Origin: a virus
Taxonomy: Duplodnaviria > Caudoviricetes
DNA: 46,615 bases
Virus record (IMG/VR): IMGVR_UViG_3300028569_002232
Coordinates: 1-46,615 of that record
Direction: 5' to 3' (one strand)
Part shown: one piece after another, positions 5,084-46,294 of the stretch
How the letters are laid out: every line of letters begins with the position of its first letter
Position numbering within the stretch: the first letter of the stretch is position 1
Made by a program: the position numbers and the translations under genes
Notes under the pieces: model-generated
The model's database searches: none
Told to the model about the DNA's origin: nothing
The model's input: the letters and a program-made list of their open reading frames with translations, nothing else

Positions 5084-5088
5084 GAATA

Positions 5089-5724: not shown

Positions 5725-5782
5725 ACTACGAAAATTTCTACAAAACGTATGGTCATTCATATGATGAATAATCTGTAAATTT

Positions 5783-6442: not shown

Positions 6443-6444
6443 TA

Positions 6445-8926: not shown

Positions 8927-8955
8927 TTGAATTTATTGAAAATGTATACTAATAT
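8927..8955 (+). promoter_or_regulatory. sigma70-type promoter, probably giving a leaderless gmd transcript
   Basis: TTGAAT, 17 nt, TAATAT; ATG 6 nt downstream. Confidence 0.55.
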
Positions 8956-8961
8956 ATAAGT

Positions 8962-10125: not shown

Positions 10126-10127
10126 AT
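10120..10127 (+). promoter_or_regulatory. GTGTAAWT motif (putative phage-specific promoter)
   Basis: GTGTAAAT starting 13 nt before the GTG start at 10133; the motif recurs upstream of four other genes. Confidence 0.45.
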
Positions 10128-10132
10128 TATAG

Positions 10133-18563: not shown

Positions 18564-18592
18564 TTGCATTTTTCCTAATAGAAATATATAAT
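18564..18592 (+). promoter_or_regulatory. sigma70-type promoter, leaderless
   Basis: TTGCAT, 17 nt, TATAAT; ATG 7 nt downstream. Confidence 0.65.
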
Positions 18593-18599
18593 ACTCAAT

Positions 18600-18857
18600 A
18601 TGGCATCAATGGACAACATCTACGATATTCTAGGTAAACTAGAGAAAGAAAATATAGATTATTTATTTATTACTATTCAGCATGGTAAGACTAATAGTAA
18701 AGCAGATGTATTTTATTCTTTGAATAATGAAGAGAAGTCTTTTGGAGCTCTTAAAGAAGGCTTAAGCGAATTCCAAATAAATATAGACAAATCAATTAAC
18801 AATTTTAAATCAAATAAAAAGCGGAAAAAGAAAAGTAAAGATGACGAAGACAGTTGA
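18600..18857 (+). CDS. small hypothetical protein
   Basis: 85-aa ORF with its own promoter, overlapping the dnaE start. Confidence 0.65.
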   Translation: MASMDNIYDILGKLEKENIDYLFITIQHGKTNSKADVFYSLNNEEKSFGALKEGLSEFQINIDKSINNFKSNKKRKKKSKDDEDS

Positions 18858-28800: not shown

Positions 28801-31330
28801 ACCAATAATTTGCACCATTTGGATAATTAACAACATCTCTTCTTACGCCGTCTCCAACGTAACCAATAGATGGATCCCATTCTCCACGATATACTATACC
28901 TGCTCCTGCAAGTGATCTTCCAGACGCACCAAAATTAGTCTGTAAAATCATTCCTTCGTTAGGTCTCTCTCCGTTTATGGCTCGAATTTTTATATAATAG
29001 TTTCCGCCGCTTGTTGGAGCACCAAAAATTTGGTTAGAGGAGTTTAGATTAGCGTTTATTCCTGGTGGTAAATATGCATCTCCTATACCTGAAATAGTTG
29101 TAGCAGATATCTCAAATTGAGTAGCTCTAGAATTCGTTTGGATTTGGTAAAAAAATGCTTGATCTAATGGACTAGAAACAATGCTTGGACTTGTAAATAT
29201 GTCTGAATTTTGAGGCCTAAAACCACTTATAGCAGATACTTTTATATTTCTACCTTTTGTTATAATTTGATTTTCATAACCAATACCAGTATCATAATAT
29301 TCATTAAATAGAAAAACTTCACCGATTCCAGTTACATCTCCACCAAGTTTAGCTTCAATCACGGTATAACCCGTCGTATTATTACTCTCACCAGTTATTT
29401 GAATTAAATTTTTGCTAACTATTTCTAAAGGAATCTTTGCCAAGTCTTTAAAACCAAATATATTTGTTGTTCCTTGATAACCACTAAAATATATTTCATT
29501 AACATTAGATGCATTAATACCAGAAATAGTTATAAAACCAAGATTATTATATGTAGTATTAGAATTTGAAATATCGTAAATCGTAGGTAAAATGTCAATA
29601 CTTTTATTTGAAGGCAATATATAACTCTCACCAAATTTATTTCTTTTAATTTTAATTCTTGCTTGAGGGTTTCTTACTTCTCTTGGTACTTTAAATCTGA
29701 TGCCAGTCGCAGAATTTGAAACTTTAATTCCACTGATTGAATAGGCATTTGGTTCATCTATATTACCAGTAATTCCTAAGAATAAAACTTCCGAGTTAGT
29801 TAGATTTCCATAATCTCCAGAAGTTCCACTAGGACTATATATTTCTATTTCATCTAAATATTTCGCAGCTTGTATTCCAGATAAATATCTGATATCAACA
29901 TTAGCTTCAAAAAGCCTAGTAGTTGATACTAAAAGATCATTTGAATTATTAGATCTAATTAATTCGCCAGAACTAGGAAAATCTACAGAAAATATTTTAA
30001 GAGATGTGGTTGTATAAGCGTTTGGTAAAGCAAATGTAGCTTGTGTTGCGTCTTGATTTATTGTGATATCTTTTATTAAAACCTTTGGTTGACCTAAATC
30101 AATATATTTTATTCTTTGAAGATGTTTACCACTTATTCTAACAATTGTTCCAGTCCCAGCTAAAACATCATTTGGACTATAGCCACTTGCAATTAATTGA
30201 GGATAAGAAACGTTTAATAAATTTGAGCTTTTGTCTGAACCATAAACGCCAGAAACAAAAATGTAATCAGAAGAACTAAAATTTGGTATTTTAAAAGATA
30301 ATCCAGTATCTCCTACCAAAGAATATGAATTGACAGAAATATCACCGATTTTTAATGATTGAATAAAAGATAAATTATCTCCACTTGCCACTATATTTGT
30401 GGATTCTACTAGCCCTGTTTGAGGAGAAAAACTATGTATATTAGGATATCCAGATATATAAAAGCCAGTGAATTGAGCTCCGCTGGATATATCTTTAAAT
30501 TTAAGATTTTCTAAAATTCCACTTTGATTTTTTCTAATATTGTATGGTACTTGAAACTCTAAAAATTCTAAAGATCCTGTATTTTCGTATTTTTCATAAA
30601 GAAAATTAATTAAGGCTCCTCTGCCATTTCCGCTATTTGGAATGAATTCAATCCCAGAGTTTAAATTTGGAACTGTAAAAATACCAGAATTATTTATATT
30701 GAAACTTCCCAAAGAACCATCGATTCCTGTAATTGATACAGTTAGAACTGCGTAAGAATTCTGCTCGTATTTTTTAAGACCTTGAAGATTAAAAGTATTC
30801 CCGACTGAATATCCTGTGCCATAATTTTGAATATCTCCTCCAGTAACTCTATATAATCCAGTTTCTTGAAAAGATGGACGAACTTTATTTCCTGCGCTAT
30901 CAACAAACAAAAGATTTGCTCCAGGATATAAATTAGATCCAGAGACTTTAACATATTGACCAGGCAGAACATTCTTATTATCAAAACCACTTATACTAGG
31001 TTGATTTAGTATTTTTAAATTAAAATAATTAGTTGATAAATTTGCAGGATTATAAACTGAGACTCTATACTTAGATGGAGCTAAACCAGAAGGCGTAAAT
31101 CCCACTGTATTTAAAGATAGGGTATTGTTTATTCCAGATATATTTTCATTAAATCGGCCATTGAAAACAAATTTTGAATTAGGATCGTATACATTCTGTC
31201 CAGATATTTTTATAATATTTTTATTAAATTGTTCTCCAGAGATGATTATGGTCTCTCCATTAATTGCGACAGCCTCAGATGGAAACTGAATAACTGGTTG
31301 AGTGGATTGAATTGTAAAAAATACGCTCAT
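25886..31330 (-). CDS. large virion or tail fibre protein (IPT/TIG, Ig, beta-roll repeats, lectin-like modules)
   Basis: 1814 aa. IPT repeats (PSISGF...PGQYVKVSGSNL; P.I.SFSP..G....ASGDNL), He_PIG-like LPPGI...IFGAPT, and GG..N.I.G repeats. Confidence 0.7.
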   Translation of the reverse strand: MSVFFTIQSTQPVIQFPSEAVAINGETIIISGEQFNKNIIKISGQNVYDPNSKFVFNGRFNENISGINNTLSLNTVGFTPSGLAPSKYRVSVYNPANLSTNYFNLKILNQPSISGFDNKNVLPGQYVKVSGSNLYPGANLLFVDSAGNKVRPSFQETGLYRVTGGDIQNYGTGYSVGNTFNLQGLKKYEQNSYAVLTVSITGIDGSLGSFNINNSGIFTVPNLNSGIEFIPNSGNGRGALINFLYEKYENTGSLEFLEFQVPYNIRKNQSGILENLKFKDISSGAQFTGFYISGYPNIHSFSPQTGLVESTNIVASGDNLSFIQSLKIGDISVNSYSLVGDTGLSFKIPNFSSSDYIFVSGVYGSDKSSNLLNVSYPQLIASGYSPNDVLAGTGTIVRISGKHLQRIKYIDLGQPKVLIKDITINQDATQATFALPNAYTTTSLKIFSVDFPSSGELIRSNNSNDLLVSTTRLFEANVDIRYLSGIQAAKYLDEIEIYSPSGTSGDYGNLTNSEVLFLGITGNIDEPNAYSISGIKVSNSATGIRFKVPREVRNPQARIKIKRNKFGESYILPSNKSIDILPTIYDISNSNTTYNNLGFITISGINASNVNEIYFSGYQGTTNIFGFKDLAKIPLEIVSKNLIQITGESNNTTGYTVIEAKLGGDVTGIGEVFLFNEYYDTGIGYENQIITKGRNIKVSAISGFRPQNSDIFTSPSIVSSPLDQAFFYQIQTNSRATQFEISATTISGIGDAYLPPGINANLNSSNQIFGAPTSGGNYYIKIRAINGERPNEGMILQTNFGASGRSLAGAGIVYRGEWDPSIGYVGDGVRRDVVNYPNGANYWYAATTNTNSTPGPTNPNWIAFSNEFSATSTQISLSEQSNITSILNIGRLNVASGVIKSVNDIDSNLGSGFFLGYDNSYNPGKPKFRVGNSDNYIKFNGLGLDIVGPLSGILTTSRNILNSNNVVNSEHSVALGLNNLIESGSNNVFIFGTNNTASNSRRSSIIAGQANLITGLGAFISQDSNIVGGENNKIIGSFCNIGGGKNNIVDALSTGLAGIGNQIFSVSLTGEKNREIIYPLALYTNQLGILQNIKKTGEQDFYDIKLSNVTSTQLDVEFASVLDSEDLNIDIFSWISVYSQNLYSGSFGEDDKVSQFKVFSTGIASGVKDLRINFQTPFDGTDNIVVLNTLQSQDFYKNHITGVNRSGFNIVFSKSLDENVFAHFFAGNIGNFTGIKENLGKILEVGSVKPFANIIFGTGANFDIPIDRSQYIFQNVYKPDSNSLYIAKGREIEQNKLKIVLNNPIDPKNEYILLDAVSYTGTILNHNLQVYNTGLNSGLNTYSISLLSGIPESYIPIVDEIISGNNFYPYATSNHTQNQFNINFGNNLVEDVSFNVGIYRSGKYAFDSGSHFASSKIISGSNQNIFSIPFDLNLRKRPRILFNLENINNNNFYVANIEDITKTGFSIKLSNNLSSGEQLKINYLAVEGTGHEQYNAVNHILGYETFQLSKEIVINTENSASQEVKVFGRATSDNNLYYHIFTHSDPSRFDIKISDTISGQELKDLNFDYILTDLTRDLVLTRNLIGESAYGRLAGFGFDDVGSSTIGGGTGNFIKGLVSVIGGGVKNTILGDYNVIPGGRSNSISDFVSDFEAPKTVFCGVVAGNLNVITGNIQNAVILGGESNNIENTNRDVASESFASAIVGGKLNTISGSFSAILGGTHNNIRASYSYGVGRNIDIDKSGCMVLGDSTPTKKINLGSNTLTMHFASGIYITGVSSGVSPINLDLNNLPTGASNLPVGAIYRSGDFLKIKLF

Positions 31331-33054
31331 TCGAATAATCCTCCATTTTCATCCATCATTTGTATAGCGTATCTTCCTGTTGGAAGACTTCTTAGAGGAA
31401 TATACCCACTCAATAAATTCTTATTAATTATTCTAAAGTTAGTCTCAAAAGTACTCTGATTAGCTGGATAAATATTATCTGCATATCTGAAACGAACAAT
31501 GCAGTTATCGTATTGATATGGACTATCAATTAATATAGGTTTTTTAAAACTTTTTCCTTGTATAATTATGAGGCTACTACTAAAACCACTAGCTGGTAAA
31601 ACAGACAGAGGAATTGGAGTTTCTGTAAAATTATTTAAAAAATTTTTTGAAATTCCTGTACTATTTACCAATTTGATTCTACCATTTATATGATAATCAG
31701 TTGATGGTATTTGAAAAGATAAATTATTTTTATCACTTATTATTATATTTTCTAAAGGTATCTCTTCTTGAAAATTGTTTTGGTCCCCAGTCATGAGATA
31801 AACTTTTTTATAGTATAAATAATCGCCAGTATAAACAAATGTATCAAGATTTGTAAAATCACTAGATATAGTAAAGTAATTTAATTTAAAAGTACTGTTA
31901 TTGGTTGCATTTGGTACATTTATAGAGAATTGATTTCTTTCTAAATTAGATAAATTTGTTGATACGTATGTATTTCCTATCGCTATATTACTAATTTTTT
32001 CTTTACTTGTAAATACAAACGGTGGATATAAATTGTCTTGTCTATCTATTCCGCTCAATCGATCAAAATATACAATTTGAGAAGATGAATTTGCATCAAT
32101 ATCTATAGATTTTTTTTCAAAGAATGAAGATTCATACATAAATCCACTTGATCTTAAAACTAAAACATTTAAAGACATGCCTGTAGTTAAGACATTTGAT
32201 AGATTCAGAGCGAAGCTACTTGTAGTTTTACCGCTGATATAAGAGTCTAGATATGCGCTAGTGTTTTCATAACCAGAGTATTGACTTAAATTATAAAAAA
32301 CAGAATAATTTGCATCGCTAAATCCAGAAGTCAAATTGATTGTGTATGTTGATGATCCTGATGGTAATTGTCTTCTAAATGATTGAAAACCTGTGTTTGT
32401 CACATTAATCATAGAAAGTAAATGATTTTCATAATATTTCTGACTTAAATTAGTATTTTTTTTGTAATTTATTCTTAAAGATTCACCGCTAATAAAACTA
32501 AAATTATCTACATTTGATAATCTAAAATTATTTATTTCACCAGTTAAATTGAAGTTTTCAGCTAAAGTTATATTGGCAACACCACTTTTCGTATACATTG
32601 GTATATTAAAAATATTACTTTCTCCGCTGAAGTAGTAATTAATATCATTTAAGATCGGACTAGCATAAATAAAGCCAGTACTTATTGATGTTAAAACTTT
32701 ACCAGTTATATTGATAGTGGACCCCTCTGATCCATTTTTAGGGTCAAAATTCTCTATCTCAAATATAGGAAGAAAAGGTAAATTATTTTGCCCAGTAATT
32801 TGAAAAAAATTAGATGAAATTATTAATTTACCAGTATTAGGATTTGAAGGTACGAGAAAATCCATTTTTTGAGTTTGATCTATTAATGAGAAGTTTAAAC
32901 TTTCTCCACCAAAAGAAAGAGTATCCACATAATCTAGATCCTCACCATTTATAGATATTAATTGTCCTAAAACTCCAGTTGGACTAGAAGTAGAGGTAAT
33001 CTTAGGATTTGGCGGAATATATTGAAAAAATCCAGTTGAGGTAATGAGTCCCAT
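31327..33054 (-). CDS. IPT/TIG-domain virion protein
   Basis: PKITSTSSPTGVLGQLISINGEDL, FDPKNGSEGSTINITG and LPASG....IIIQGKSF. Confidence 0.7.
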   Translation of the reverse strand: MGLITSTGFFQYIPPNPKITSTSSPTGVLGQLISINGEDLDYVDTLSFGGESLNFSLIDQTQKMDFLVPSNPNTGKLIISSNFFQITGQNNLPFLPIFEIENFDPKNGSEGSTINITGKVLTSISTGFIYASPILNDINYYFSGESNIFNIPMYTKSGVANITLAENFNLTGEINNFRLSNVDNFSFISGESLRINYKKNTNLSQKYYENHLLSMINVTNTGFQSFRRQLPSGSSTYTINLTSGFSDANYSVFYNLSQYSGYENTSAYLDSYISGKTTSSFALNLSNVLTTGMSLNVLVLRSSGFMYESSFFEKKSIDIDANSSSQIVYFDRLSGIDRQDNLYPPFVFTSKEKISNIAIGNTYVSTNLSNLERNQFSINVPNATNNSTFKLNYFTISSDFTNLDTFVYTGDYLYYKKVYLMTGDQNNFQEEIPLENIIISDKNNLSFQIPSTDYHINGRIKLVNSTGISKNFLNNFTETPIPLSVLPASGFSSSLIIIQGKSFKKPILIDSPYQYDNCIVRFRYADNIYPANQSTFETNFRIINKNLLSGYIPLRSLPTGRYAIQMMDENGGLFE

Positions 33055-33058
33055 ATAT

Positions 33059-34030
33059 TTATGCTAATGTTAGCATCCTTATTTGTTGATTTGTTATATT
33101 TTTAACTCTAGGAACAACAGCTGTAATAATATTGTTATTATTAATAGCGAAACTATCCGCTTCGTATTCTCCAAAAAATACTTTGCCTACAAAATTAAAA
33201 TTTGTTCCAGAAATTTGAATTCTATCTTTATAGCGGCCAGAAGTGGGAGTGAAAGAAGATATAGTAGCCTCTTCAATAACATTGAATTGTCTTATAGTGA
33301 GTTCATTTGTTAAAAATTCTTCACTTTTAGCTTGAAATACTTTTTTAGTTAGAAATCCAGTAACGCCATACCCCTGAGTAATAAGAGAGGTACCAAAAGG
33401 AGCAGTGCCTAACGTAACTCCTACTCTAAAACCAGATATTTCTAGCAAAGGATTTAAATTGTCACAAGTTATATTTAAAGTAGTTTCTTTTAAACCAAAC
33501 ACTCCTCTTCTTTCAAAAGTATCACCAATATGTATCTCTGGTCTTATATCTGTAGAGTAGCTGTAAGAAGCATTTAAATAAGATCCAGTTAAATTTTGAT
33601 TATTAAAATTACTTATACTAATTTGATTTACGTGGACTATATTATTTAAGTTTTGTTGATTATCGTAGGTAGGTGAAAAAGTTCCTGTAGGAGTTCTAAA
33701 AAATAAAATTTCTGTTGTACATATTACTGGATTATTTGGACTGAATCTTGCATTATAACTTTTTATGTAACCTGTTTGTTGAATACCTCCAAAATTAAAA
33801 CTAACTCCTTCATCTAAATTTAATAAGTTCTTAATTATATCTTCGCCAGTATAATGATAGGTAAAACTTAAACCTCCTTGTATTGTATTTTCTACTCGAA
33901 TATCATCTGCGTGTCTTTGACCGATCTCAATGTAAGGACTAATTTGTGCTTCATATGAAAGTTGAGCTTCAGTTGCAACAATCAATTGATTATTGATTTT
34001 TAGATTTACATTTTTTCCATTGTAAAACAT
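33059..34030 (-). CDS. tail-tube-like protein with a C-terminal IPT domain
   Basis: Two beta-rich repeats (SY...I.P....G) followed by ISSFTPTSG......ISGTNF. Confidence 0.55.
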   Translation of the reverse strand: MFYNGKNVNLKINNQLIVATEAQLSYEAQISPYIEIGQRHADDIRVENTIQGGLSFTYHYTGEDIIKNLLNLDEGVSFNFGGIQQTGYIKSYNARFSPNNPVICTTEILFFRTPTGTFSPTYDNQQNLNNIVHVNQISISNFNNQNLTGSYLNASYSYSTDIRPEIHIGDTFERRGVFGLKETTLNITCDNLNPLLEISGFRVGVTLGTAPFGTSLITQGYGVTGFLTKKVFQAKSEEFLTNELTIRQFNVIEEATISSFTPTSGRYKDRIQISGTNFNFVGKVFFGEYEADSFAINNNNIITAVVPRVKNITNQQIRMLTLA

Positions 34031-34031
34031 A

Positions 34032-34862
34032 TTAATAATATTGAACTATAGTCTTACTTGATCTGACTATATCATCAAGATTAGATTCTAATGTAGAATT
34101 ATTAATAAATGCATCTGGCATTTCTATCGAAAAACTATTTGAATCTAAAAGCCCAGACATTTCAATTTTTAGTGGTATGTTTTGTCCAGTATAAACTAGT
34201 TTTGTAAATAAATTTTCTGTTATATTAACTGTTTCTTGAGCTCTTATGGGTTTTACTTCTAATGGAGTCTGACTTCCTAAAGCATATATAGGATTTAAAT
34301 TACATGTGAATGAATAAGAAAAGCTATATAAATCTGCAGTAAGTTCACTAGCAGTGCCTTTTGCAAAAACATTTCTACCAGATATAAGGTTGCTTTTAGA
34401 GCTATGAGCTATACTATTTGCAGAAGCTGTATTTGAATTACTTAAATTAGAAGGAGTTTGGAAAAAAGTATTTGTAATTACAGGCTCGTAAGTAATATAA
34501 CTTGCTTGAGCAGTTATTACATTATTAGGTTCTAATTTAAAACTATAATTATTTAAATAACATTTTTGCCCAGTAACACCTGCAAAACCAATAGTTACCC
34601 CATCATAGTTAGTGGGAGCAGCAATAAAACTCTTAATTTCTTTCACAGTATTAAAAGCTGGATCACCAGTAGGATTAATAAGATAAGATATCTGGAAAGT
34701 GCTAGAACTAGGCCCAGTTGTTACTTGATTTCTAAAGGGTTTTCTTTTGCCTAAAGTATAAATTGGTCCAAGAGTTATATCTGAATTAAAATTAGCAGAT
34801 ACAGCTAATACTCCAGTATTATTTATACTTATCTCGCATTGATCGTAATATATTCTAGCCAT
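34032..34862 (-). CDS. tail-tube-like protein (internally duplicated)
   Basis: PIYTLGKR and PIYALGSQ repeats in a beta-rich sequence. Confidence 0.55.
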   Translation of the reverse strand: MARIYYDQCEISINNTGVLAVSANFNSDITLGPIYTLGKRKPFRNQVTTGPSSSTFQISYLINPTGDPAFNTVKEIKSFIAAPTNYDGVTIGFAGVTGQKCYLNNYSFKLEPNNVITAQASYITYEPVITNTFFQTPSNLSNSNTASANSIAHSSKSNLISGRNVFAKGTASELTADLYSFSYSFTCNLNPIYALGSQTPLEVKPIRAQETVNITENLFTKLVYTGQNIPLKIEMSGLLDSNSFSIEMPDAFINNSTLESNLDDIVRSSKTIVQYY

Positions 34863-34865
34863 ATT

Positions 34866-34895
34866 CCTTACTCCTTTGCCTAGTTTAAATTACAC
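34866..34895 (-). promoter_or_regulatory. GTGTAATT motif plus AAGGAGTAAGG ribosome-binding site
   Basis: Reverse complement reads GTGTAATT (34895-34888) ... AAGGAGTAAGG-AAT-ATG. Confidence 0.6.
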
Positions 34896-34925
34896 TAACC
34901 AGTAATATTTATCACTTTAGCCATG

Positions 34926-35777
34926 CTAGAATGATATACTATTAACATTCGTTGCGTATGGTCCTGATTCAGATCTACTAATATGACTAGTATAAGTTAA
35001 TTGCATCAAACTACTACCATCTATATCTGTATTAAAATCTTCTTTAACTAATAGAGCATCCTTGAGGTTGAATGATTGAATGACAGTGGATGTGTTATTC
35101 TTATATAAATTTATATTAAAATTATAAACATTTTGATTATTAGGATAATCGAATAATTTTTTGTTTTGATAATCACTCAAAGATATAGAAAAGCTTGTTG
35201 TAACTATGATAGGATACTGTAATTTAACATCTACAGGCTTCACAGAGGTAGCATCAAAAACTGGAAGCCTATTACATTTAATATTGACCACTAGGTTATT
35301 AACCTTTTCATTTTCTAACTCATTAAAATCTATTTGTATATCACCTGGATTTACTATGTTTAAATTATTCTCATTCATAGTAAAAGGTAATATATTAGAC
35401 GAAACGTTACCAAAATCACTGTAAAAATTCCATTTGGTTGATATACTAGGTATTGTCCCTATTCCACAAGAAAAGTTGTATTCTGCCATATATCCGCTAT
35501 TCATACCAAAAGTATTATTATCGTATTGTACCTTTACGTTAGCTCCTAATTCGCCAGTATATTGAATAAATTGATCGCTATTTATAAATAAAGACTCTAA
35601 ATTTAGTGCTCCTACAAATATGCCAATTGGTACTCTGTTTAAATGATTACTATTAGAACCTAAGTATTTAAGCTCTTCTATGGGCAGGTCATAACTAGCA
35701 GAAATTGACTGAATACCCGTAAGAGGAGCATCGTCAATATAGACCCTGTTAAATTCTCTTGTAAATCTAGATAACAT
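34926..35777 (-). CDS. tail-tube-like protein (internally duplicated)
   Basis: LTGIQSISASYDLP....KYLG and a second repeat IKCNRLPVFD....P; appears paralogous to its neighbours. Confidence 0.55.
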   Translation of the reverse strand: MLSRFTREFNRVYIDDAPLTGIQSISASYDLPIEELKYLGSNSNHLNRVPIGIFVGALNLESLFINSDQFIQYTGELGANVKVQYDNNTFGMNSGYMAEYNFSCGIGTIPSISTKWNFYSDFGNVSSNILPFTMNENNLNIVNPGDIQIDFNELENEKVNNLVVNIKCNRLPVFDATSVKPVDVKLQYPIIVTTSFSISLSDYQNKKLFDYPNNQNVYNFNINLYKNNTSTVIQSFNLKDALLVKEDFNTDIDGSSLMQLTYTSHISRSESGPYATNVNSISF

Positions 35778-36347: not shown

Positions 36348-36938
36348 ATGGGCATGGGTTATCCACAGGACAGTTTTAGAAAAGAAGATTCAAGTTCAGT
36401 CAATGATAAAATGATTCCTTGGGCGAATAAATCTTTAGGACATAGTTTTCTAAAAAATGACATTATTAAATACAAAGGTATATTTTGGTATTGCTTAAAA
36501 GATCATTTTAAAACATCTACAAGCGAACCAGGAACAGATAATGGAGCCCAATATTGGGGAGGAGTCACTTCAATATCAACAAAATCTATCTTAGCGGAAT
36601 TTTTTTGGATTCCTTCTTATGCTTCAACAATACAACATAAACCTTCAGTAGCCACAATAAGATTTGGCAATGGATACGAGCAAAGAATATCTAAATCTAT
36701 AAACCCAGATTTAAAAACTCTTCAGCTGACATTTGATCAAAGAACCTCTAGAGAAGCTAGAGCAATTATTCATTTTCTACAGCAAAGAAGTGCAGTTCAA
36801 GCTTTCGCTTATAATCCAGGAGATATTTATTCAGACAAAACTTATAGAACCAGATATGTCTGCAGAGAGTGGGAAACTGGCTTTACTTTTAAAGAAAACT
36901 ATTCTATCAAAGCGAAATTTGAAGAAGTATCTGCTTGA
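36348..36938 (+). CDS. minor tail protein, lambda gpM-like (distal tail)
   Basis: PSV..IRFGNGYEQR....IN, EA.AI..FL, VC.EW and AKFEEV. Confidence 0.85.
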   Translation: MGMGYPQDSFRKEDSSSVNDKMIPWANKSLGHSFLKNDIIKYKGIFWYCLKDHFKTSTSEPGTDNGAQYWGGVTSISTKSILAEFFWIPSYASTIQHKPSVATIRFGNGYEQRISKSINPDLKTLQLTFDQRTSREARAIIHFLQQRSAVQAFAYNPGDIYSDKTYRTRYVCREWETGFTFKENYSIKAKFEEVSA

Positions 36939-36953
36939 TGGAGAACAGATAAT

Positions 36954-39257
36954 ATGGGAATGGGGCCTTATACCACTAGTAGCATTCAACCAGCTGAATA
37001 TTTTTTGCAGGCTCTCGAAGCTCAAAGATCCATAAATTCTCATATCCACGAGATTGAACCAAGTACCCCAATTTTTCTTTATGAAATAGATCTAAATGAA
37101 ATTAAACCTGCTTCAGTATCTTATCCAAACAAAAATGGGCCAGTTAAAGATGGAGTTATAAGAGTCCATAATGATTTCAATCTTTTTAATATAAACAGAG
37201 GAGTTATTTATTGGAGAGGAAACTATTACTTTCCTTTTCCAATTTATGGAGAACAATTTGATATTACTTCAAATGGTACGATTCCTACTCCAAGGATTAA
37301 GTTTTCTAGTCAATTTTTAGATGATGAATTTAATTCTTTTTATAAATATATAAGAATGCAAATCAATGAATTAAAAGACATAGTTGGTTCAAAAGTTACT
37401 AGAAGAAAAACGTTTGTAAGATATCTAAGTCCAAATAATTTTCCAGCAGGAGTTAATCCTTTTAACAATTTCACAGATACTCCTTGGGCCTCTAGAGCAG
37501 GAGACACCTTAACAGTCAGATCTCTTGAAAGACCTCCAATTAATTTTGCTAAATGGATAGTATATACAAGAAAATCTAGTCCAACAACAAATAAAATTTT
37601 TAGTCTTTTGAGAACAGACGATAGGTTAAGAACTTTAGATATAGATCTGCAAAAAATAAATCATAATGTAAGTTCTTTAGATTTTTTCAATTTATTCGTA
37701 AATGAGAACATCAACCAAAGTCCAGATGTAACTGATAGTTTTTCTTCAGACAATTTTATCATTCCCTCAAGCACAAACTATACTTTTATTATAAAAGACT
37801 CTACAAAAGAATTTAAGAAAATAAATACTTCCGCAAATATTAAAGTTCTGTGTTACTATAATTTTATAGTTTTCAGTAATTCGTCAAGTTCTACGATTAA
37901 TTACCCTATTTCATTTTCGGAATCAGGTTCTGAATTGGTAACTTTTTTATCTTTTAAGTCTCAAAGTGAAACGGTTGCAGAAAGATTTAATTACTCAATA
38001 TCATCTCAAAATTCTTCTAGTTTCACAGCTTCTTTTTCAAAAAACTTAAATAATACTTTTGATGTTAATTATTTGACCGTCCCAACAGGAATTTATACTG
38101 GTATCAATCCTGCTTCAAACGAAAATGCAAAACTTATTGCACTAAAATTGAGCAATAATTTTGGCTCATCAACTTCAGGAGAATACAATATTTTATTTCC
38201 CACGTCCTTCTCTAACGTACCTAAACTTTTATTTAATAGTTGGGGTACAGGATTCAAATATAATCAATACTTAAAAGACATTAGTTCAACTGGATGTGTA
38301 TTTGTGGCTACTCATACAGGAGATAACGTAGAGTTAGGAACTCAAAATATTAATTTAATTGCCACAGATTATATTGCAGAAGATTTAAACAGTCCAGATG
38401 ATGCTCAGATATATAATTCATATCATAATATGGCTAAGCTTTATTTGGATCAAATTAATAATACCCAAATTGATATTTATGAAGTAGAATTAACTCCTGA
38501 TATTTATTATATAGATAGAAAAGTGCAAGAAGATTCTCAAAACGTGATTTATGAGCTAGCATCTCTTCTCGATATAGAGGGTATAAAATTACCTGCAAGA
38601 GTTTTGCTATCTAAAAACTGTTCATTTACTTACCGAGGTGCAGGATGTTTGTACGAAAGATCTGACAGATTGAACAGAGTACATTCAGGAGTATACGGTT
38701 ATGTTGATCAAGTAGTAAAAGCTACAAATGATAATACAGTTACTAGATCCATAATTTCTGATTCTGAAAAGTGCAAAGGACTACAATCTGCACCTCCAGT
38801 AGCAAATGAATCAGATGAAACATTTAGTCAATATATAAATGGAAGCGGAGATGGTAGTCATTGGATAGACCGAGGTAATTGGCAACAAAATGTATCTTAT
38901 AAATATGGAAATTATATATATATAGAAAAAAATTATATTAAATTCTATTTTGTATGCAAAGACGCTCATATTTCAAATTCTTTAAATGCACCGCCTAATA
39001 GTAAATACTGGGAATCAGATACATGTTCTAAAAGTATAAATGGATGCAGATTAAGATGGAAAGAAAACATTAATTTCCCAAAATATAATCTTTCTGCTAA
39101 CCATGTTTATGGCATTAATAATGAGGACAAGATGATAGTAATGGATGTTAGATCTCCAATAGATATCAATGGAAAACAACTACCTGGTTTTCTTCCTTTT
39201 GGAGGATTCCCTTCTGTAGAAGGCAAATTCCAAAATCAACAGAGTCCTGGAGGATAA
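36954..39257 (+). CDS. minor tail protein, lambda gpL-like, with a large insertion
   Basis: LYEIDL, VTRRKTFVRYL..NNF, YYIDRK, YELAS.LD, C...YRG.GC, C.K...GC..R and PFGGFP. Confidence 0.85.
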   Translation: MGMGPYTTSSIQPAEYFLQALEAQRSINSHIHEIEPSTPIFLYEIDLNEIKPASVSYPNKNGPVKDGVIRVHNDFNLFNINRGVIYWRGNYYFPFPIYGEQFDITSNGTIPTPRIKFSSQFLDDEFNSFYKYIRMQINELKDIVGSKVTRRKTFVRYLSPNNFPAGVNPFNNFTDTPWASRAGDTLTVRSLERPPINFAKWIVYTRKSSPTTNKIFSLLRTDDRLRTLDIDLQKINHNVSSLDFFNLFVNENINQSPDVTDSFSSDNFIIPSSTNYTFIIKDSTKEFKKINTSANIKVLCYYNFIVFSNSSSSTINYPISFSESGSELVTFLSFKSQSETVAERFNYSISSQNSSSFTASFSKNLNNTFDVNYLTVPTGIYTGINPASNENAKLIALKLSNNFGSSTSGEYNILFPTSFSNVPKLLFNSWGTGFKYNQYLKDISSTGCVFVATHTGDNVELGTQNINLIATDYIAEDLNSPDDAQIYNSYHNMAKLYLDQINNTQIDIYEVELTPDIYYIDRKVQEDSQNVIYELASLLDIEGIKLPARVLLSKNCSFTYRGAGCLYERSDRLNRVHSGVYGYVDQVVKATNDNTVTRSIISDSEKCKGLQSAPPVANESDETFSQYINGSGDGSHWIDRGNWQQNVSYKYGNYIYIEKNYIKFYFVCKDAHISNSLNAPPNSKYWESDTCSKSINGCRLRWKENINFPKYNLSANHVYGINNEDKMIVMDVRSPIDINGKQLPGFLPFGGFPSVEGKFQNQQSPGG

Positions 39258-39258: not shown

Positions 39259-40011
39259 ATGGAATTTAATATTCAAATTAAACATTTTATCAAAGAATTG
39301 GCTCAAAATAAAAAAAATGAAGAGATATGCGGACTTGTATATTTAGATAATAAAAATTATAAATTTCAAGTTTACCCTTGTCAAAATAGATCAAACGATA
39401 AGAAAAATAACTTCACAATATCTCCTCAAGATTTTCTAAATTGTTCGAGCTTAGGGAAAATTACTGCTTGTTATCATTCTCATATCAACGAAAGTGTTAC
39501 TTTTAGTGAAATAGATAAGAATAATAGCAATATGTATAACATTCATTATATATTATATAATATTAAGCATGATACTTTTAGTTTTCATACTCCTAACAAA
39601 GAGAAAAACCCTTATATTGGAAGACCATATATAATGGGGAAATCAGACTGTTTTACCTTAATGAAAGAGTACGCTTTAAAAGAAGAGAATGTAAATATAT
39701 ATTTTCCTGAAAGTTTATTTTATCCAAAACATTTAGACGATATCAAAAGTGTATATGAGGACAACTTCAAAAAACAAGGCTTTCTTAAATTAGATAAAAA
39801 TATAAAACTACAGAAATCAGACGGTTTAATGATGACTTTTCCAGGAGTTTCAAATGAATTCCCGACTCATGGAGCAATATATATAGATGATGGTTTAATC
39901 TTGCATCATCCTTTTAATTCTTTTTCTTGTGTAAATATATATGACGCTTTTTTTAAAAAGCATACGACTTATGTTTTAAGGTATAAGGAGTTAAGTAATG
40001 GTCAAAGTTAA
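39259..40011 (+). CDS. tail assembly protein K-like (JAB/MPN metalloprotease plus NlpC/P60)
   Basis: EEICG and YHSH....FSEID (JAMM motif); GRPY..G..DC..L, HGAIY and ILHH (NlpC/P60). Confidence 0.88.
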   Translation: MEFNIQIKHFIKELAQNKKNEEICGLVYLDNKNYKFQVYPCQNRSNDKKNNFTISPQDFLNCSSLGKITACYHSHINESVTFSEIDKNNSNMYNIHYILYNIKHDTFSFHTPNKEKNPYIGRPYIMGKSDCFTLMKEYALKEENVNIYFPESLFYPKHLDDIKSVYEDNFKKQGFLKLDKNIKLQKSDGLMMTFPGVSNEFPTHGAIYIDDGLILHHPFNSFSCVNIYDAFFKKHTTYVLRYKELSNGQS

Positions 40012-41326
40012 GTTACATGGAAATTTAGGCCAAGAAATTGGTGAGGAATGGAGTCTCAACGTAACCACCGTTGCAGAAGCTTTCAGAGCTATAGAAGTTA
40101 ATACTAAAAAATTTACTAAGTTCCTTATAAACCAAATTGAAAGCGATGCTAAATATGAGATATTAATAAATAATAGACCATTATGGATCCCAAATGCAGA
40201 AAATCTACCAACAGAAAACAATAAAATTAATAAAAAACATTTTGAAATGATGGCTCAATCTGAAATATTTATTGACTTTCAAGATAAATTAAAAACTATA
40301 GATATTATCCCTATTTTAGAGGGTTCTGGTGGTGGTGGAGGAGGTGGAGGGGGTGGAGGATGTTTTCCTGCAGGAACAAAAGTATCTACTCCTAACGGAA
40401 TTAAAAATATAGAAGACTTAAAAGAAGGAGATGAGATATTTTCTTTCGACAAAGACAAGAAGATACAAAAAGATATAATTCAAGAAGTTTTTCAACACGA
40501 AAATAATAAGATTTTAAAAATTACACTTTGGAATGGTTTAATCATAAGAGCCACAGGAAATCATTGGTTTTTAAATGAATATAATAGATTTAGTCCTTTA
40601 GAAAATTTTAAAGTAGGAGATGTTTTAATTCATGAAACTGGAGATGTTCTACCAATCGAAAAAATAGAGCAGGATCAAAATGAAACAGTATACAATTTTC
40701 ATGTATTGCAAAATCATACATATATTGCAAATAATATATTAGTTCATAATGGTGGAGGTGGAAAAGGAGGAGGAGGAGGAGGAGCAAAAGGCAGTTCAGC
40801 TCTGTCAGGAGTAAAAGGTATTTTTGGAATTTTTCTTTCTGTTCTTTTAGCTCCTCTTACGGCAGGAACATCTCTTGCATTTTTATCTATTTTAGCACCA
40901 GCTATATTAGGATTAGTTGCCCTTGGAGTATCTTTACTTTTAATGAAGCCGCCACCTATGGTAAGTCCTCAAGCAATTGCTAATCCTTCTGCAGATTTTC
41001 AAGCAAGTCCTGATAGTGGAGGAGGAGGAGAACCTTCTTATACTTTTAGTGGCCCAGTAAATACAATAGGAGAAGGAGGTCCAATTCCTGTTGGTTATGG
41101 AAGATTAATTATAGGTAGTCAACAAGTATTTAGTTCTTATGATCAATTATACCGTATTCAATCTAGAACAAACAAATACGAAAGCGATGGTAAACCTCCA
41201 ATTGGAGTAGGAGCAGGAGAACAAAATTATCCAACAAGAAGTTTTTTCTTTTCTCATTATGGATATCCAATGAATATTCAAGATATCCAAGGAAATTCTT
41301 TAGGAGAAGTTTCATTAGGAGTTTAA
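39998..41326 (+). CDS. tail assembly protein I-like (ubiquitin-like) containing a Hint domain
   Basis: N-terminal VKLHG.LG...G.....V.T.AEA.RAI...IDIIPILEG; hydrophobic segment; C-terminal SYTFSGPVNT..EG.PIPVGYGRL.IGS. Confidence 0.88.
   Translation: MVKVKLHGNLGQEIGEEWSLNVTTVAEAFRAIEVNTKKFTKFLINQIESDAKYEILINNRPLWIPNAENLPTENNKINKKHFEMMAQSEIFIDFQDKLKTIDIIPILEGSGGGGGGGGGGGCFPAGTKVSTPNGIKNIEDLKEGDEIFSFDKDKKIQKDIIQEVFQHENNKILKITLWNGLIIRATGNHWFLNEYNRFSPLENFKVGDVLIHETGDVLPIEKIEQDQNETVYNFHVLQNHTYIANNILVHNGGGGKGGGGGGAKGSSALSGVKGIFGIFLSVLLAPLTAGTSLAFLSILAPAILGLVALGVSLLLMKPPPMVSPQAIANPSADFQASPDSGGGGEPSYTFSGPVNTIGEGGPIPVGYGRLIIGSQQVFSSYDQLYRIQSRTNKYESDGKPPIGVGAGEQNYPTRSFFFSHYGYPMNIQDIQGNSLGEVSLGV
40361..40750 (+). 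other. Hint (mini-intein/BIL-type) domain, 130 aa, no homing endonuclease
   Basis: CFPAGTKV (block A), IEDLKEGD, ATGNHWF (block B TxxH) and VYNFHV..NHTY.ANNILVHN (blocks F/G); the +1 residue is Gly. Confidence 0.9.
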
Positions 41327-41330: not shown

Positions 41331-43376
41331 ATGCCAAAAAAATGTAAAGATTGTGATCCTAATAAATTCATAGAAGGACTAGCTTGGAGAGGTAAAAATG
41401 GTAGCTCTTATGACGGATATACTCTTTATAATGACGTAGGAAAACCTAGCTCTACTGATATAACATTAGCGGACGTTAGTGACTTAGTAGATGCTTATAA
41501 TCCAGCTTTTAGTCAAAGCACTTCTAATCCAAGTCCATTACCAGAATCTCCATCTAACTCAATATTAATTGAAGGAATCGATAGAGGACAAGGGTTCTGG
41601 TTTGTTTGGAGCCTTATAAATGGACTAGTTATGTACGGAACTCCTGGAGTAGCATTAACTTCTGCATCGATCACAAGTGATGCTGCTGTATTTACTAAAA
41701 TTGGAGATGGTTTTAATTTTTCTGTAACGTTAGATCAAGTTGCTTCTTCTTTAAATTATAATGATTTTGGAGAGATTGCAGATTCAAATAGTTCAGATAA
41801 ACTAAGATTTTCTAATAGTAATAGCTCAACAATTTCTTTGATTAAAGATAAAATTAATCGTGTTGGACGTTTCACAGGTATAATAAATAGTACACTAAAT
41901 GGTAATAGATATATCAAAAGTGGAAAAACTACAGTTCTAGAGACTTTCAAAGCTGAAAAAAGTTTAACAATCACAAGCAAAGATATAAATGGAAATGATC
42001 CTATTTACGTTACTAGTGCTCCAACTAAACATGCTTTTAAAAATCAAGGATTCTCTTATACTTTAACTACTAATCTAGCAGCTTCATCTTTTAATGCCTC
42101 TTTAGACTCAAATTCTTTAAATTTTTTAAGTAATTTAGGATTAGTATGGAATGAGAACTCTAAAACAATTACTGGCAATGTATCCTCAAATCTAGGAGAT
42201 GAGATTAAAAATTTTACTTTAAATTTTAATATAACTGGTCCAAATGCAGACGCAGGTAACAGAACTAATTTTAGTTTGGTAATATTGTATGGACAATATA
42301 ATGCATCAATTCCTTTGCCAACAATAAGTAATAAAAATTTTAATGGCAGTGTAGGAGCAAAATTTAGTGGTACTCTAGCTGGTTTAAACAACAGACACTC
42401 AGTTATTGGAATATCTTCTCTTCCAGAAGGACTTGTTTTTAATAGCTCCAGTAAAACCATAACAGGAACTCCAAAACATAGTGGTCTATTTTATGCATTT
42501 GCTAGCTGCTCTAATAGTAGAGGATCTAGCTCAACCGCTACTTTGGCATTCGCTTTTACTGCATATACTCTTAATAATAAACCTCAAGATAAAAGTTTTC
42601 CTAGTAAAATACAATTACCAGTTTACGATTACAATGTTTTAAAAAATAATAAGTTTACTCTAAATTTTTTCACAAATTCAGATGAAATAATTCAATTTAA
42701 AAAAATAAATAAAAATGAATTTGAGGAAATTAGAAAAAATGGTAAACCTACAAATATTACAAATGTTGGATTAGTTATACCACCAACGTCATTTACTCCA
42801 GGGAACGGGATAGAAGCTGAAAGTTGTTTTTGGATACAAGTAGACGATCCATCAACTTCAGCTAATAAAATTAAAGAATTTGATATTAAAATACAAGGCA
42901 ACTACGCTATAACTTATAGTTCAATTGGTTATCAAGACTTGCTGGGTAACGTTTGCTATACTCCAGACTCTAACTCAAGCGGTCCTGCTTCAACTCCATT
43001 TGTAGAAAGTTTAAGTGTCACTTGCACAAACACAATCAAATCTGGTCTTAGTGGAAATCCAGCAGAAAATGTTCCAACTGTTACTATTAGTCCAACGCAA
43101 ATAGAGCATCTAGTGGTATTTCTACCAGACGGAGCCCTTGATACATCATCAAGCTTTGTGACGGGTTCATTCTTAAGCAAGAGTAATCTGTTAAAGTATC
43201 CTAATGGAATTCCAGCTCAAAATGGTAGATCTTACAGATTTTATGTGCAATTTGCAGATACTTGCTCTTTTAATAATACTTATCAAAATTTTCTTATGTA
43301 TTTTGGCACATATTCTCCTAGCGCAGGAGATGTATATAGCTGCTGGTATGATCAACGGGTAGACGGGAAATACTAA
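41331..43376 (+). CDS. Ig-domain (He_PIG-like) tail-associated protein
   Basis: GLVWNENSKTITG and LPEGLVFNSSSKTITGTP..SG repeats; lies between I and J. Confidence 0.65.
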   Translation: MPKKCKDCDPNKFIEGLAWRGKNGSSYDGYTLYNDVGKPSSTDITLADVSDLVDAYNPAFSQSTSNPSPLPESPSNSILIEGIDRGQGFWFVWSLINGLVMYGTPGVALTSASITSDAAVFTKIGDGFNFSVTLDQVASSLNYNDFGEIADSNSSDKLRFSNSNSSTISLIKDKINRVGRFTGIINSTLNGNRYIKSGKTTVLETFKAEKSLTITSKDINGNDPIYVTSAPTKHAFKNQGFSYTLTTNLAASSFNASLDSNSLNFLSNLGLVWNENSKTITGNVSSNLGDEIKNFTLNFNITGPNADAGNRTNFSLVILYGQYNASIPLPTISNKNFNGSVGAKFSGTLAGLNNRHSVIGISSLPEGLVFNSSSKTITGTPKHSGLFYAFASCSNSRGSSSTATLAFAFTAYTLNNKPQDKSFPSKIQLPVYDYNVLKNNKFTLNFFTNSDEIIQFKKINKNEFEEIRKNGKPTNITNVGLVIPPTSFTPGNGIEAESCFWIQVDDPSTSANKIKEFDIKIQGNYAITYSSIGYQDLLGNVCYTPDSNSSGPASTPFVESLSVTCTNTIKSGLSGNPAENVPTVTISPTQIEHLVVFLPDGALDTSSSFVTGSFLSKSNLLKYPNGIPAQNGRSYRFYVQFADTCSFNNTYQNFLMYFGTYSPSAGDVYSCWYDQRVDGKY

Positions 43377-43378: not shown

Positions 43379-46294
43379 ATGGGATATTATCAAAGAATTT
43401 ACAGAAATACGACTTTATCAAGTTCATATGTTCCTGGTAATTGTGGAAGCGTAGTAAGCCAAGCAGGAGCCAACCAAGTAGTGAATAACTATGGCTATAG
43501 AATAGGAAATACTTTAAAAGATACAAAGGATATTGGTATTACTTCTTTAACAAATATATCTATCATGGATATTATAGCAGAGGGCCCAATTGAAGGCATA
43601 GTTGATTACGAAATTGTTCCAAATCCAGGATCTGTTTTAGGAGATATAGGATACAAAAATGGAGCTAGAATAGTCAAATATCCTGGAGTAAATTCCATTG
43701 TTAGATCCATATATTGGAATGAAATACCATTAGCAGATAATACATATCCAAATAAAGGCAGCTTAAACTTTGAATTTATAAGATTTAACTATGATTATGG
43801 AACTTCTGCTCCAAGACATACCGTAGTAAAAGAATTAAATAATATAGAAAATTCAGAACCTTTTTATGCTCGAAAAACAAACAACGGTCAACTTTTAGAA
43901 AGTCTAAGATTAAGAAATAATAGTACTAGCGAAATTATATCTGAAAAAATTAAATTACCTAGAAGATTAACTAGCACAAAAGTAGCTGGTACAAGATTAT
44001 TTGGCAAAAGATCTTTTCAAGATGGAACAACTAAAACTTATAAAAAATCACTCAACATATTAACAAAAGATTTGTATGGATTAAGGCTTCATATAAAAGC
44101 TACGAGTCTTTTCAAAAATATTGTAGATTTAACCATCTGGGATACTAGTGATCAAGCCGCTGCCAATTCTGTCACAGGCAGAATAGATCGTCTAGAAATG
44201 TCATTTAATCTTTATTTAAAAAGAATAGATTTTACTCCGAGCATCGGAAAAGTAGTAACTCTTGTGCCCAATCCTAATTATTCAGGAGTTTCAGGTGGAA
44301 CATATGTAATCAGCGAACAAGATTATTACGATCAATTTTGGAGACCAAATAATGATCCATTAGCTTTATATTGGCCACCAAATTGCGCAGGTTGTGGCGC
44401 AGGGCAGGAAGGACCAGATGGTTATCAAAGACAACCAGCAAATTATACAGAATTTATTAATGGAAGAACAACATATTCTCATAGACACGATGGTAAAGTA
44501 TATAATTCTTATGCAAGAGATGTAAATAGATTACAAAGAGATTTTAGATCAGCTTTACAAGATCATATAAATCAAAGACAAAGATTATTAGAAGGGGATT
44601 CAAAAGATTATGCTATATTAACAATAGTTGGCAAATTAAATCAAGGTCAATATATTGAAACTTTTGAGTGGACAGGGCTTAATAAATATACAAATTCTAA
44701 TACTGTTGGTTGGGAAATAGAAATTGAACCAACTTACACAGAGCCTGTGGATACTAATATAATAATAAAAAGCTCAATTGATTCAATCACAGAAATATAT
44801 GATGATTTTTTAGTATTACCTCATTCTGCTACTTTAGTAAACACATTTGATTCAAGATTTTTTACTAGCATTCCTCAAAGATCATATGATACAAGATTAT
44901 TAAAAGTTAAAATTCCGTCTAATTACGACCCATATTCTAAAACTTACAAAGGCATTTGGGATGGTAATTTTAATTTAGGGTGGACTGACAATCCTGCTTG
45001 GTGTTTTTATGATTTAGTTACTAATGACAGATACGGATTAGGAAAATATATTGATTCAAGTTTAACAGACAAATGGACTTTGTATGAAATAAGTCAATAT
45101 TGTGATCAATTAGTAAGCGACGGTAAAGGAGGTCTAGAACCAAGATTCACAGCAAACGTATTACTAAGCACAAGAGAAGATGCTTACAAAGTCCTAAATG
45201 ATATGGCTAGTATTTTCAGAGCGATTGTATATTACAACGCAGGATTAATATTTACATCTCAGGATAGGCCTAAAGAACCATTGTACATATTTAATAATAG
45301 TAACGTTAAAGAAGGAGAATTTACTTATAGCAACACTAGTAAAAGAGTGCGAAGAAATGTTGCTCTTGTGAGATACAATGACAAAGACAATTTTTACAAA
45401 CCAGCGGTCAAATACGTAGAAAGCAGAGAAGGACTAATTAGATTTGGAATTAAAGAAATAGAAGTTAGCGCTTTTGGTTGCACTAGCGAAGGACAAGCTG
45501 CAAGATTAGGTAAATGGACTTTATTATCAGAAAATTTAGAATCAGAATTAATCAGCTTTGAAACTAGTTTACCTGCTATGTATTTAAAACCAGGCGACAT
45601 TGTATATGTGCAAGACCAAAATAGACAAAATAAAATACTTGGTGGCAGAACTTACGAATTAAATAAGAATTATGCAATCTTAGATATAAAATATGAAGAT
45701 ATTTCTGGATTTTTACCAGCAATTAATGGTTGTAATTTTAATGTTCTCACCCCAGCAGGAAATATAGAAATTGGTACAGAAACTGGCAATTTAATTTTAG
45801 ACAATAGCAACAACAATACTTTAGTTAATATTGTAGATGAAAATGGAGTAAGTACTTTAGCATCTGGAATAAACTCTTCTTTGATTAGAAGAAAACAAGT
45901 ACAAACTATAAAGTATAGCACAGATTATACAGTTTCGAACCCAATCGATACAAATGTTTTTGGTCTTTATGTAAGTATGCAGCCAACTGGAGCTTTTGAA
46001 GGTTACACAAAAATAGATTTTGCAGGACAATGTTTAGATCAAACTCAACATACACTCATTCAAAATACAGTTTGGACAATAGAAATTAATCCAGATAATT
46101 ATGATTATACTAAAAGCCCAAGTACCAAAGGGCTGAGCGATCCAGATCCATATCCAGGAGCTATTTTAGAAGGCCACTTAGACAAAACTCAAAAATTTAG
46201 AGTTTTAGATATAGAAGAACTAGAAGAGTTTAGATATAAAATTACAGCATTACAATACGATGATAGTAAATTTGATTTAGGAGATAAGATCTAA
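43379..46294 (+). CDS. tail tip/host-specificity protein, lambda gpJ-like
   Basis: DIIAEGPIEG, IP.RSY....LKVKIPSNYDP, WTDNPAWCFYDL..N.RYGLG, EPRFT.N and AFGCTS.GQA.R.GKW.L. Confidence 0.92.
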   Translation: MGYYQRIYRNTTLSSSYVPGNCGSVVSQAGANQVVNNYGYRIGNTLKDTKDIGITSLTNISIMDIIAEGPIEGIVDYEIVPNPGSVLGDIGYKNGARIVKYPGVNSIVRSIYWNEIPLADNTYPNKGSLNFEFIRFNYDYGTSAPRHTVVKELNNIENSEPFYARKTNNGQLLESLRLRNNSTSEIISEKIKLPRRLTSTKVAGTRLFGKRSFQDGTTKTYKKSLNILTKDLYGLRLHIKATSLFKNIVDLTIWDTSDQAAANSVTGRIDRLEMSFNLYLKRIDFTPSIGKVVTLVPNPNYSGVSGGTYVISEQDYYDQFWRPNNDPLALYWPPNCAGCGAGQEGPDGYQRQPANYTEFINGRTTYSHRHDGKVYNSYARDVNRLQRDFRSALQDHINQRQRLLEGDSKDYAILTIVGKLNQGQYIETFEWTGLNKYTNSNTVGWEIEIEPTYTEPVDTNIIIKSSIDSITEIYDDFLVLPHSATLVNTFDSRFFTSIPQRSYDTRLLKVKIPSNYDPYSKTYKGIWDGNFNLGWTDNPAWCFYDLVTNDRYGLGKYIDSSLTDKWTLYEISQYCDQLVSDGKGGLEPRFTANVLLSTREDAYKVLNDMASIFRAIVYYNAGLIFTSQDRPKEPLYIFNNSNVKEGEFTYSNTSKRVRRNVALVRYNDKDNFYKPAVKYVESREGLIRFGIKEIEVSAFGCTSEGQAARLGKWTLLSENLESELISFETSLPAMYLKPGDIVYVQDQNRQNKILGGRTYELNKNYAILDIKYEDISGFLPAINGCNFNVLTPAGNIEIGTETGNLILDNSNNNTLVNIVDENGVSTLASGINSSLIRRKQVQTIKYSTDYTVSNPIDTNVFGLYVSMQPTGAFEGYTKIDFAGQCLDQTQHTLIQNTVWTIEINPDNYDYTKSPSTKGLSDPDPYPGAILEGHLDKTQKFRVLDIEELEEFRYKITALQYDDSKFDLGDKI

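Follow-up and report, generated by a model that had tools for sequence, protein, structure and literature searches.

In the tail-tip module of phages lambda and T1, a gene encoding JAB and NlpC/P60 domains (gpK) precedes a tail protein with a ubiquitin-like (Ubl) head (gpI), with gpJ downstream; the paper that defines this arrangement predicts JAB cleavage at the last Gly of the Ubl, and its accessible text does not mention inteins (PMC1779556). According to the accessible part of a conference report, lambda gpK removes the Ubl of gpI only once gpI has joined the tip complex (PMC12908700), and in the lambda virion, as described in the available portions of two structural studies, only gpI residues about 135-223 are resolved, as a trimeric plug (PMC10721106, PMC12617516). 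Bacterial intein-like domains (BILs) of type A, as far as the accessible text on them goes, form an N-terminal thioester, cleave through Asn cyclisation and can ligate their flanks via the freed amine, with cleavage dominating (PMC4031507). Further, the accessible part of a preprint describes conjugation of a Ubl by Bil, the target being the central tail fibre, and speculates that phage DUB domains counter Bil (bioRxiv 10.1101/2023.09.04.556158), a proposal that concerns gpK and not Hint domains.

Our literature search, whose coverage excluded most subscription papers, returned no published description of a Hint domain in gpI or gpJ. Here, we describe a gpI in which such a domain lies between the Ubl and the tail plug. 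Judged from its sequence, this Hint is probably a BIL that excises itself from a linker able to tolerate it, the likely route being religation through the amine of the +1 Gly.

A lambda-type tail tip with a Hint domain in gpI

The window, by which we mean the whole stretch of DNA analyzed (46,615 nt; IMG/VR virus record IMGVR_UViG_3300028569_002232, Caudoviricetes), has 30% G+C and belongs to a large phage genome that encodes replication and glycosylation functions. Its tail-tip block (Table 1) shares gene order (gpK-gpI-gpJ), domain content and a conserved Ubl-terminal Gly with the lambda/T1 module. In keeping with the published definition (PMC1779556), a gene matching Prok-JAB and NlpC/P60 lies upstream of a Ubl-headed gpI, and gpJ lies downstream; the flanks of gpI match the phrog_32 tail assembly protein (E 6e-24). 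The block differs from that module in having a Hint in the gpI linker, with a second Hint before the gpJ core in relatives, and in that the 681-aa N-terminal extension of gpJ is split off here as its own gene.

Table 1. Features of the tail-tip block, in window positions
Feature	Position	Strand	Match
gpM-like and gpL genes, completing the lambda-type M-L-K-I-J block	36348..39257	+	
gpK, JAB/JAMM peptidase fused to NlpC/P60	39259..40011	+	phrog_30, E 1e-53
gpI ubiquitin-like head, aa 1-109, predicted MoaD/ThiS-type beta-grasp	39998..40324	+	
Ser-Gly11 spacer, aa 110-121; -1 residue is G121	40325..40360	+	
Hint / type-A BIL-like domain, C122-N251	40361..40750	+	
Gly/Lys linker opening GGGGK; G252 is +1, K256 is +5	40751..40819	+	
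gpI hydrophobic segment and C-terminal structural (tail-plug) part	40820..41326	+	
ORF X, 681 aa; N-terminal extension of gpJ in relatives	41331..43376	+	
gpJ central tail fibre core, separate gene, starts Met-Gly-Tyr	43379..46294	+	

Read from its N-terminus, gpI (442 aa, 39998-41326) consists of the Ubl, Ser-Gly11, the Hint, Gly4-Lys, a hydrophobic segment and the plug domain. The order Ubl-Gly11-Hint-Gly reported in the first-pass annotation of this DNA was borne out: it is seen in the translation, matched by profiles and bridged by contigs of other runs, which cross both Hint junctions with zero differences (X2, 40085-40597; X7, 40484-41323). No contig joint skipping the Hint was found in four runs, contigs being prone to drop rare variants.

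The Hint itself is 130 aa long, with T186-x-x-H189 and H250-N251 present and G252 (GGGGK) at +1, and is too short to house an endonuclease. It matches Pfam PT-HINT (PF07591) above the curated cut-off (E 1.2e-10) and TIGR01445 (E 3.5e-10). Its top match by both sequence (E 5.9e-13) and fold (E 1.5e-12) is a C. thermocellum BIL (PDB 2LWY), and Tetrahymena BIL2 structures occupy rows 2 and 4-6 of the fold search. The model of full-length gpI is confident over the Hint (blocks 78-95) but not over the linkers. Among 43 window ORFs scanned with Pfam (13 + 30, a subset of the ORFs), neither another Hint nor a homing endonuclease family was detected. Copies of a Gly-codon repeat border the domain (28 nt, 79% identical).

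A Hint fold, a C-terminal His-Asn and no +1 nucleophile, the marks of a type-A BIL, are all found here, and by every feature checked in its sequence the gpI Hint is one. It shares with type-A BILs (2LWY, PF07591) Cys1, the block-B Thr and His, the terminal His-Asn, the missing +1 nucleophile and the lack of an endonuclease, and differs from them in its host, a phage protein of virion assembly in which it has the Ubl on one side, the tail plug on the other and Gly on both flanks, and in belonging to a clade that occupies three tail-tip sites. With class 1 inteins it has in common Cys1 and the block-B T-x-x-H but not the +1 Cys/Ser/Thr; compared with phage class 1 mini-inteins, which have the same Hint fold, Cys1 and His-Asn, it also sits in a low-complexity linker rather than in a conserved enzyme motif.

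Conservation of the Hint among gpI relatives

A search with gpI returned 69 proteins, among them 28 gpI with the Hint and five close gpI without it, so that 28 of the 33 close database homologues retain the Hint. Searching back with a Hint-less sequence brought in no additional close gpI of full length, judged from the 120 of its 177 matches that were listed. No Hint was found in any of 86 more distant gpI; of 80 metagenome loci, the 64 distant ones likewise had a gpI free of it. The first-pass annotation had regarded common Hint-less close homologues as a sign that the element is a passenger, and this applies in part, the domain being missing from five close and 86/86 distant gpI. Cultured phages gave only four weak matches, to the Hint portion alone, and each of three related viral records (44-63% complete) contained exactly two Hint matches, one in gpI and one in gpJ.

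Junctions were compared across 44 distinct Hint-bearing gpI, a table that includes near-duplicates and was gathered with a pattern demanding the terminal His-Asn, leaving out P0023, whose junctions are identical. Cys1, T-x-N-H and Gly at both +1 and +2 are present in 44/44, and the terminal His-Asn is present in all 28 database Hint-bearing proteins. The earlier statement that canonical splicing is impossible is thereby extended from one sequence to the family, as +1 is Gly throughout. Upstream of Cys1, the -1 residue is Gly in 42 and Ser in two, and -2 is Gly in 25 and Gln in 16, so that Gly-Gly directly precedes Cys1 in just 25 of the 44. Downstream, the first Lys falls at +5 in 39/39 type-1 and at +6 in 5/5 type-2 sequences.

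Across 18 sequences, dN/dS is lowest in the Hint (about 0.14), followed by the C-terminus (0.15), the Ubl (0.18) and the hydrophobic part (0.29). These values were taken from pairs with pS < 0.6 and are rough, with pS near saturation and pairs not independent. The catalytic residues noted at first pass (Cys1, T-x-x-H, His-Asn) are, hence, both intact and under purifying selection. That pS is similar across all gpI regions fits vertical inheritance of the Hint and, together with the equal dN/dS of the Hint and the structural C-terminus, supports self-removal. So does the linker: after in silico excision of the Hint, it measures 26-35 aa (43/44 measurable), as against 22-28 aa in the five Hint-less relatives, which themselves have a Gly/Lys linker of similar kind, and a near-normal length is what a religated precursor would show.

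The same conservation bears on whether the Hint reacts at all. It could be folded yet unreactive, either carried on the plug N-terminus or removed by a protease such as the NlpC/P60 part of gpK, whose C131 and H204 are present; one BIL, in the accessible text describing it, spliced only after +1 had been changed to Cys (PMC4031507). We consider an inert domain very improbable, given that all catalytic positions are invariant under purifying selection and that the tail lumen seems unlikely to accommodate three plug chains each bearing a folded domain of 130 aa.

On a tree of the flanks, Hint-less forms appear in two places within the clade, which requires at least three state changes (e.g., one gain and two losses). 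Four proteins (P0025-27 and P0029) carry another Hint subtype, of 144 aa, at the identical gpI site, and this subtype groups with the Hint of an unrelated protein, P0036 (98/94). Both the Hint-less relatives within the clade and the second subtype at the same site speak, on sequence grounds, for a domain that takes itself out of the linker. No split gpI was found at an intact locus among the loci seen; four short close fragments (P0071, P0156-158) resemble contig-end pieces.

Two observations concern Hints elsewhere. P0036 and P0047 have Hints in tandem, two or three per protein, that are related to the second subtype of gpI Hint, some ending in Gly-Asp instead of His-Asn; a locus search for P0036 returned no locus. 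At L147:3485-4549 (P0052; also P0067), an unrelated gpI has a Hint at its extreme C-terminus, with Arg at -1 and an 8-residue tail, and lies between an intact gpK and gpJ as an independent Hint-gpI fusion.

The Ubl ends well before the Hint

The IIPILEG motif of gpI terminates at G109 and is followed by S110, 11 Gly (Gly111-121) and C122. Residues 1-110 modelled alone gave a pLDDT of 93.6, and the Foldseek top rows for this model are MoaD, SAMP1, Urm1 and ubiquitin-fold chains, all of them weak (best E 0.012, none at or below 0.001). G109 is invariant in 26/26 aligned gpI rows, and the Ubl-terminal residue is Gly in all 80 distant gpI with a readable Ubl end (86 examined); invariance in a further set of 62 rows was set aside because those rows had been chosen by a pattern that requires this Gly. 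Since the Ubl-terminal Gly is conserved, G109 rather than the end of the Gly tract is the likely ubiquitin-type C-terminus, and it is the predicted cut site of gpK. The first-pass delineation of the Ubl was therefore right as to the Gly11 that follows it, but not as to where the domain stops.

This position matters for the chemistry. The Ubl Gly precedes Cys1 by 10-12 residues in 43/44 Hint-bearing gpI and by 19 in one, and with G109 12 residues ahead, the thioester would therefore form on G121. The initial proposal of a thioester on the C-terminal Gly of the Ubl is not supported by this spacing, which is never shorter than 10 residues in 44/44, or by the free variation of -2 and -3. In ciliate BUBL proteins, the Ubl's own C-terminal residue is the acyl donor and adjoins Cys1. 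Like BUBL and Tetrahymena BIL2 (PDB 6Y75, 6TMM), gpI places a Ubl, recognized from fold rows at weak E-values, before a BIL-type Hint of high fold similarity, but the Ubl terminus is separated from Cys1 in every gpI of the table. Moreover, BUBL has Ubls on both sides of the BIL; gpI has a single Ubl with its terminal Gly 12 residues from Cys1, continues beyond the Hint into a structural part, and has the gene of a JAB protease as its neighbor.

The adjacent gpK appears fully equipped. Its JAMM residues (E22, H73-S-H75, S83 and D86) are present, as the first-pass annotation had it, and, with C131/H204 of the NlpC/P60 part, were identified by sequence. All 20 Hint-bearing loci examined retain the JAMM motif, as does the single Hint-less locus observed (21/21 in the clade). 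The suggestion that the Hint allows maturation independent of JAB, in the sense of replacing gpK, is rejected, for the JAMM is intact in all 20 Hint-bearing loci. Nor would gpK readily reverse conjugates, as had been envisaged; its cut at G109 would leave a Ser/Ala-Gly10-11 scar. In distant loci, gpK can be absent between L and I whether gpJ has a Hint (e.g., L083-085) or lacks one (e.g., L132-137). Separately, a conserved N-K-[YF]-[AI]-[DE]-G leader opens X (window 41331-41390) and many gpJ (L089-L130); it resembles the Ubl end of gpI and may be a second substrate of gpK.

An alternative explanation for the Ubl-Hint pairing is that the Hint acts as an E1-free Ubl ligase, with a Ubl-Ser-Gly11 thioester passed to K256 in cis or to a neighboring tail-tip Lys and gpK trimming later. 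There is precedent for the ATP-free ligation invoked at first pass, since Tetrahymena BIL2, according to the available portion of the report, makes isopeptide Ubl conjugates without ATP (PMC8616854); BIL2 structures are prominent in our fold search, Cys1 chemistry is conserved, and Lys is fixed at +5/+6. Nevertheless, the thioester would lie 10-19 residues past the Ubl's terminal Gly, with Gly-Gly before Cys1 in little more than half of the sequences, the Gly/Lys repeats already exist in Hint-less gpI, the domain is absent from the five close and 86/86 distant gpI, scarless reversal by gpK would not be possible, and no link between the Hint and Bil defence emerged from the analysis. We judge ligation of this kind distinctly unlikely.

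Hints of the same clade in gpJ

Tail-tip Hints are not confined to gpI. Twenty-six of them, from three sites, form a single clade (97/99) together with one Hint from another protein; the sites are that in gpI and two positions in gpJ, and no Ubl domain precedes the latter. At the first gpJ position, the X-gpJ boundary, 20 related loci comprise ten in which a Hint joins the two parts, eight with direct fusion and two with separate genes (the window and L001), such that X and gpJ are one protein in 18/20; on a gpL+gpK tree, the Hint state changed at least three times. The second position was seen in 9 of the 64 distant loci, where the gene following gpI has a Hint 17-22 residues in, a distance that for one of them was counted from a longer open frame. 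The leader before these Hints resembles a Ubl end (e.g., LIKGAG), and related empty sites read VLRGAG-GG. At the sites of gpJ Hints, the flanks can thus exist as one chain or, in the X-gpJ case, as two.

Among 19 distinct gpJ Hints, -1 is Gly in 8, Thr in 7, Arg in 2, Asn in 1 and Phe in 1, and +1 is Gly in 6, Lys in 6, Arg in 5 and Met in 2; Cys/Ser/Thr at +1 is found in 0/19, as in 0/44 gpI Hints. Because these Hints lack a Ubl domain and their -1 residue varies, neither a Ubl domain nor a Gly donor is needed. This further weakens ligation, whereas the occurrence of same-clade Hints at two Ubl-less positions counts, from sequence, for self-removal. Pointing the other way, six gpJ Hints have Lys at +1 where related empty sites have Gly. 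One could imagine that this phage clade recruited BILs as ATP-free tail-tip ligases, with a Lys capturing the Ubl-Gly thioester and gpK trimming as an assembly checkpoint, a scenario to which we give little credence. If true, the gpI acceptor would be K256 at its fixed +5 position or a neighboring tip-protein Lys, the +1 Lys of related gpJ would occupy the seat of the canonical nucleophile, and isopeptide-linked Ubl tags on virion proteins would amount to a viral cycle of ubiquitin-like conjugation that does without E1, E2 and E3. The self-activating Ubl system first put forward for this locus keeps its BIL-type Hint, intact residues and ATP-free precedent but loses its thioester site and its replacement of gpK, and the Ubl-less gpJ Hints speak against it; it seems rather improbable, and less likely than self-removal.

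In the window, X and gpJ are a natural "cleaved" allele. An assembly error was considered and rejected, as contigs of X3, X8 and X9 bridge the X stop codon without a difference and a second split exists in L001; the X8 and X9 contigs carry an in-frame 18-nt insertion just upstream of that stop codon. The split gpJ genes of the window and L001 both start Met-Gly-Tyr, the window start lying close to where the relatives' Hint ends, and in L025 and L054 the His-Asn of the Hint is followed by Met-Gly-Tyr or Met-Gly-Gly-Tyr. These ends look as if C-cleavage regenerated the native start, which could point to a domesticated maturation element that benefits the phage. The main reaction of the Hint would then be cleavage at Asn251, following gpK or in parallel with it, and as a timed pro-domain or a backup it would provide the plug and gpJ with new, defined N-termini. 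Such a role would suit the location of every tail-tip Hint site at the N-terminal edge of a structural part, the high retention (28/33) and the dominance of cleavage in type-A BILs. It is less easily squared with the invariance of Cys1 and block-B His in gpI, as C-cleavage alone, judging from intein mutants, may not require them, or with a gpK that is never degraded, the direct X-gpJ fusions (8/20), in which cleavage is evidently not required, and the finding of no split gpI among the loci seen. Hence, we regard a maturation element as unlikely.

Several further arrangements were seen in distant loci. A Hint near the gpJ N-terminus with Lys at +1 and an I[KRQ]GA[GF]-type leader occurs in L083:7714-12546, L084:7697-12778, L085, L088, L100 and L118; gpL abuts gpI with no gpK between in L083-085, L100 and L118, and L088 has no upstream sequence. 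In L086:7821-9300, L087 and L091, the Hint starts the gene after gpI, with Asn for Thr in block B (N-K-I-H) and Gly flanks; L086 has two gpK-like genes.

Probable self-removal from a tolerant linker

Under self-removal, Cys122 would form a thioester on G121, Asn251 would cyclise and free a Gly-Gly-Gly-Gly-Lys N-terminus, and the freed Gly amine would attack the thioester, yielding an ordinary Ubl-(Gly/Lys linker)-plug precursor alongside by-products of cleavage alone. The cut by gpK at G109 would follow once the tip has assembled, in line with the report on lambda. The Hint would, in effect, be a guest that disposable linkers of tail-tip proteins have tolerated and kept for a long time, and we propose that its activity is selected because the plug must be freed of the Hint, and not for building Ubl conjugates. 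Ligation to the released Gly N-terminus, one of three fates originally offered for the thioester, is the one preferred here. Religation fits a Ubl that stays attached until assembly, the invariance of Cys1, the Gly at both junctions and the fact that no split gpI was seen.

Three considerations weigh against self-removal. Cleavage exceeds splicing in type-A BILs, and where continued attachment of the Ubl is essential this would waste precursor. Retention in 28/33 is higher than one might expect of a pure passenger that is flanked by Gly-codon repeats and lacks an endonuclease. Finally, the Lys fixed at +5/+6 in gpI and that at +1 in 6/19 gpJ Hints would also fit isopeptide chemistry.

The biological role of BILs is, to our knowledge, largely open, and maturation linkers of phage tail-tip proteins are a new setting for non-canonical members, in which Hint-less, fused and split alleles offer ready natural controls. 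For efficient splicing that dispenses with a nucleophilic side chain, a 130-aa, Gly/Gly-flanked BIL kept by selection is a promising candidate, and such splicing, if true, would also be useful for protein ligation; should Lys prove the acceptor, it would instead represent a viral Ubl conjugation route without E1.

Other genes in the window

Beyond the tail tip, a long run of glycosyltransferase, methyltransferase and nucleotide-sugar genes (305-11065 and 22006-25087) includes two GT17, GT34, GT9, TylF, a GDP-mannose dehydratase and an RmlD-like gene. DNA polymerase III alpha is in pieces (17168-21378), as a PHP-domain gene (17168-17929) and a catalytic gene (18841-21378) with two ORFs between them. 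Five tail-like genes (25886-35777, minus strand) run opposite to the M-L-K-I-J block, and one of them encodes a 1814-aa protein with an H-type lectin match.
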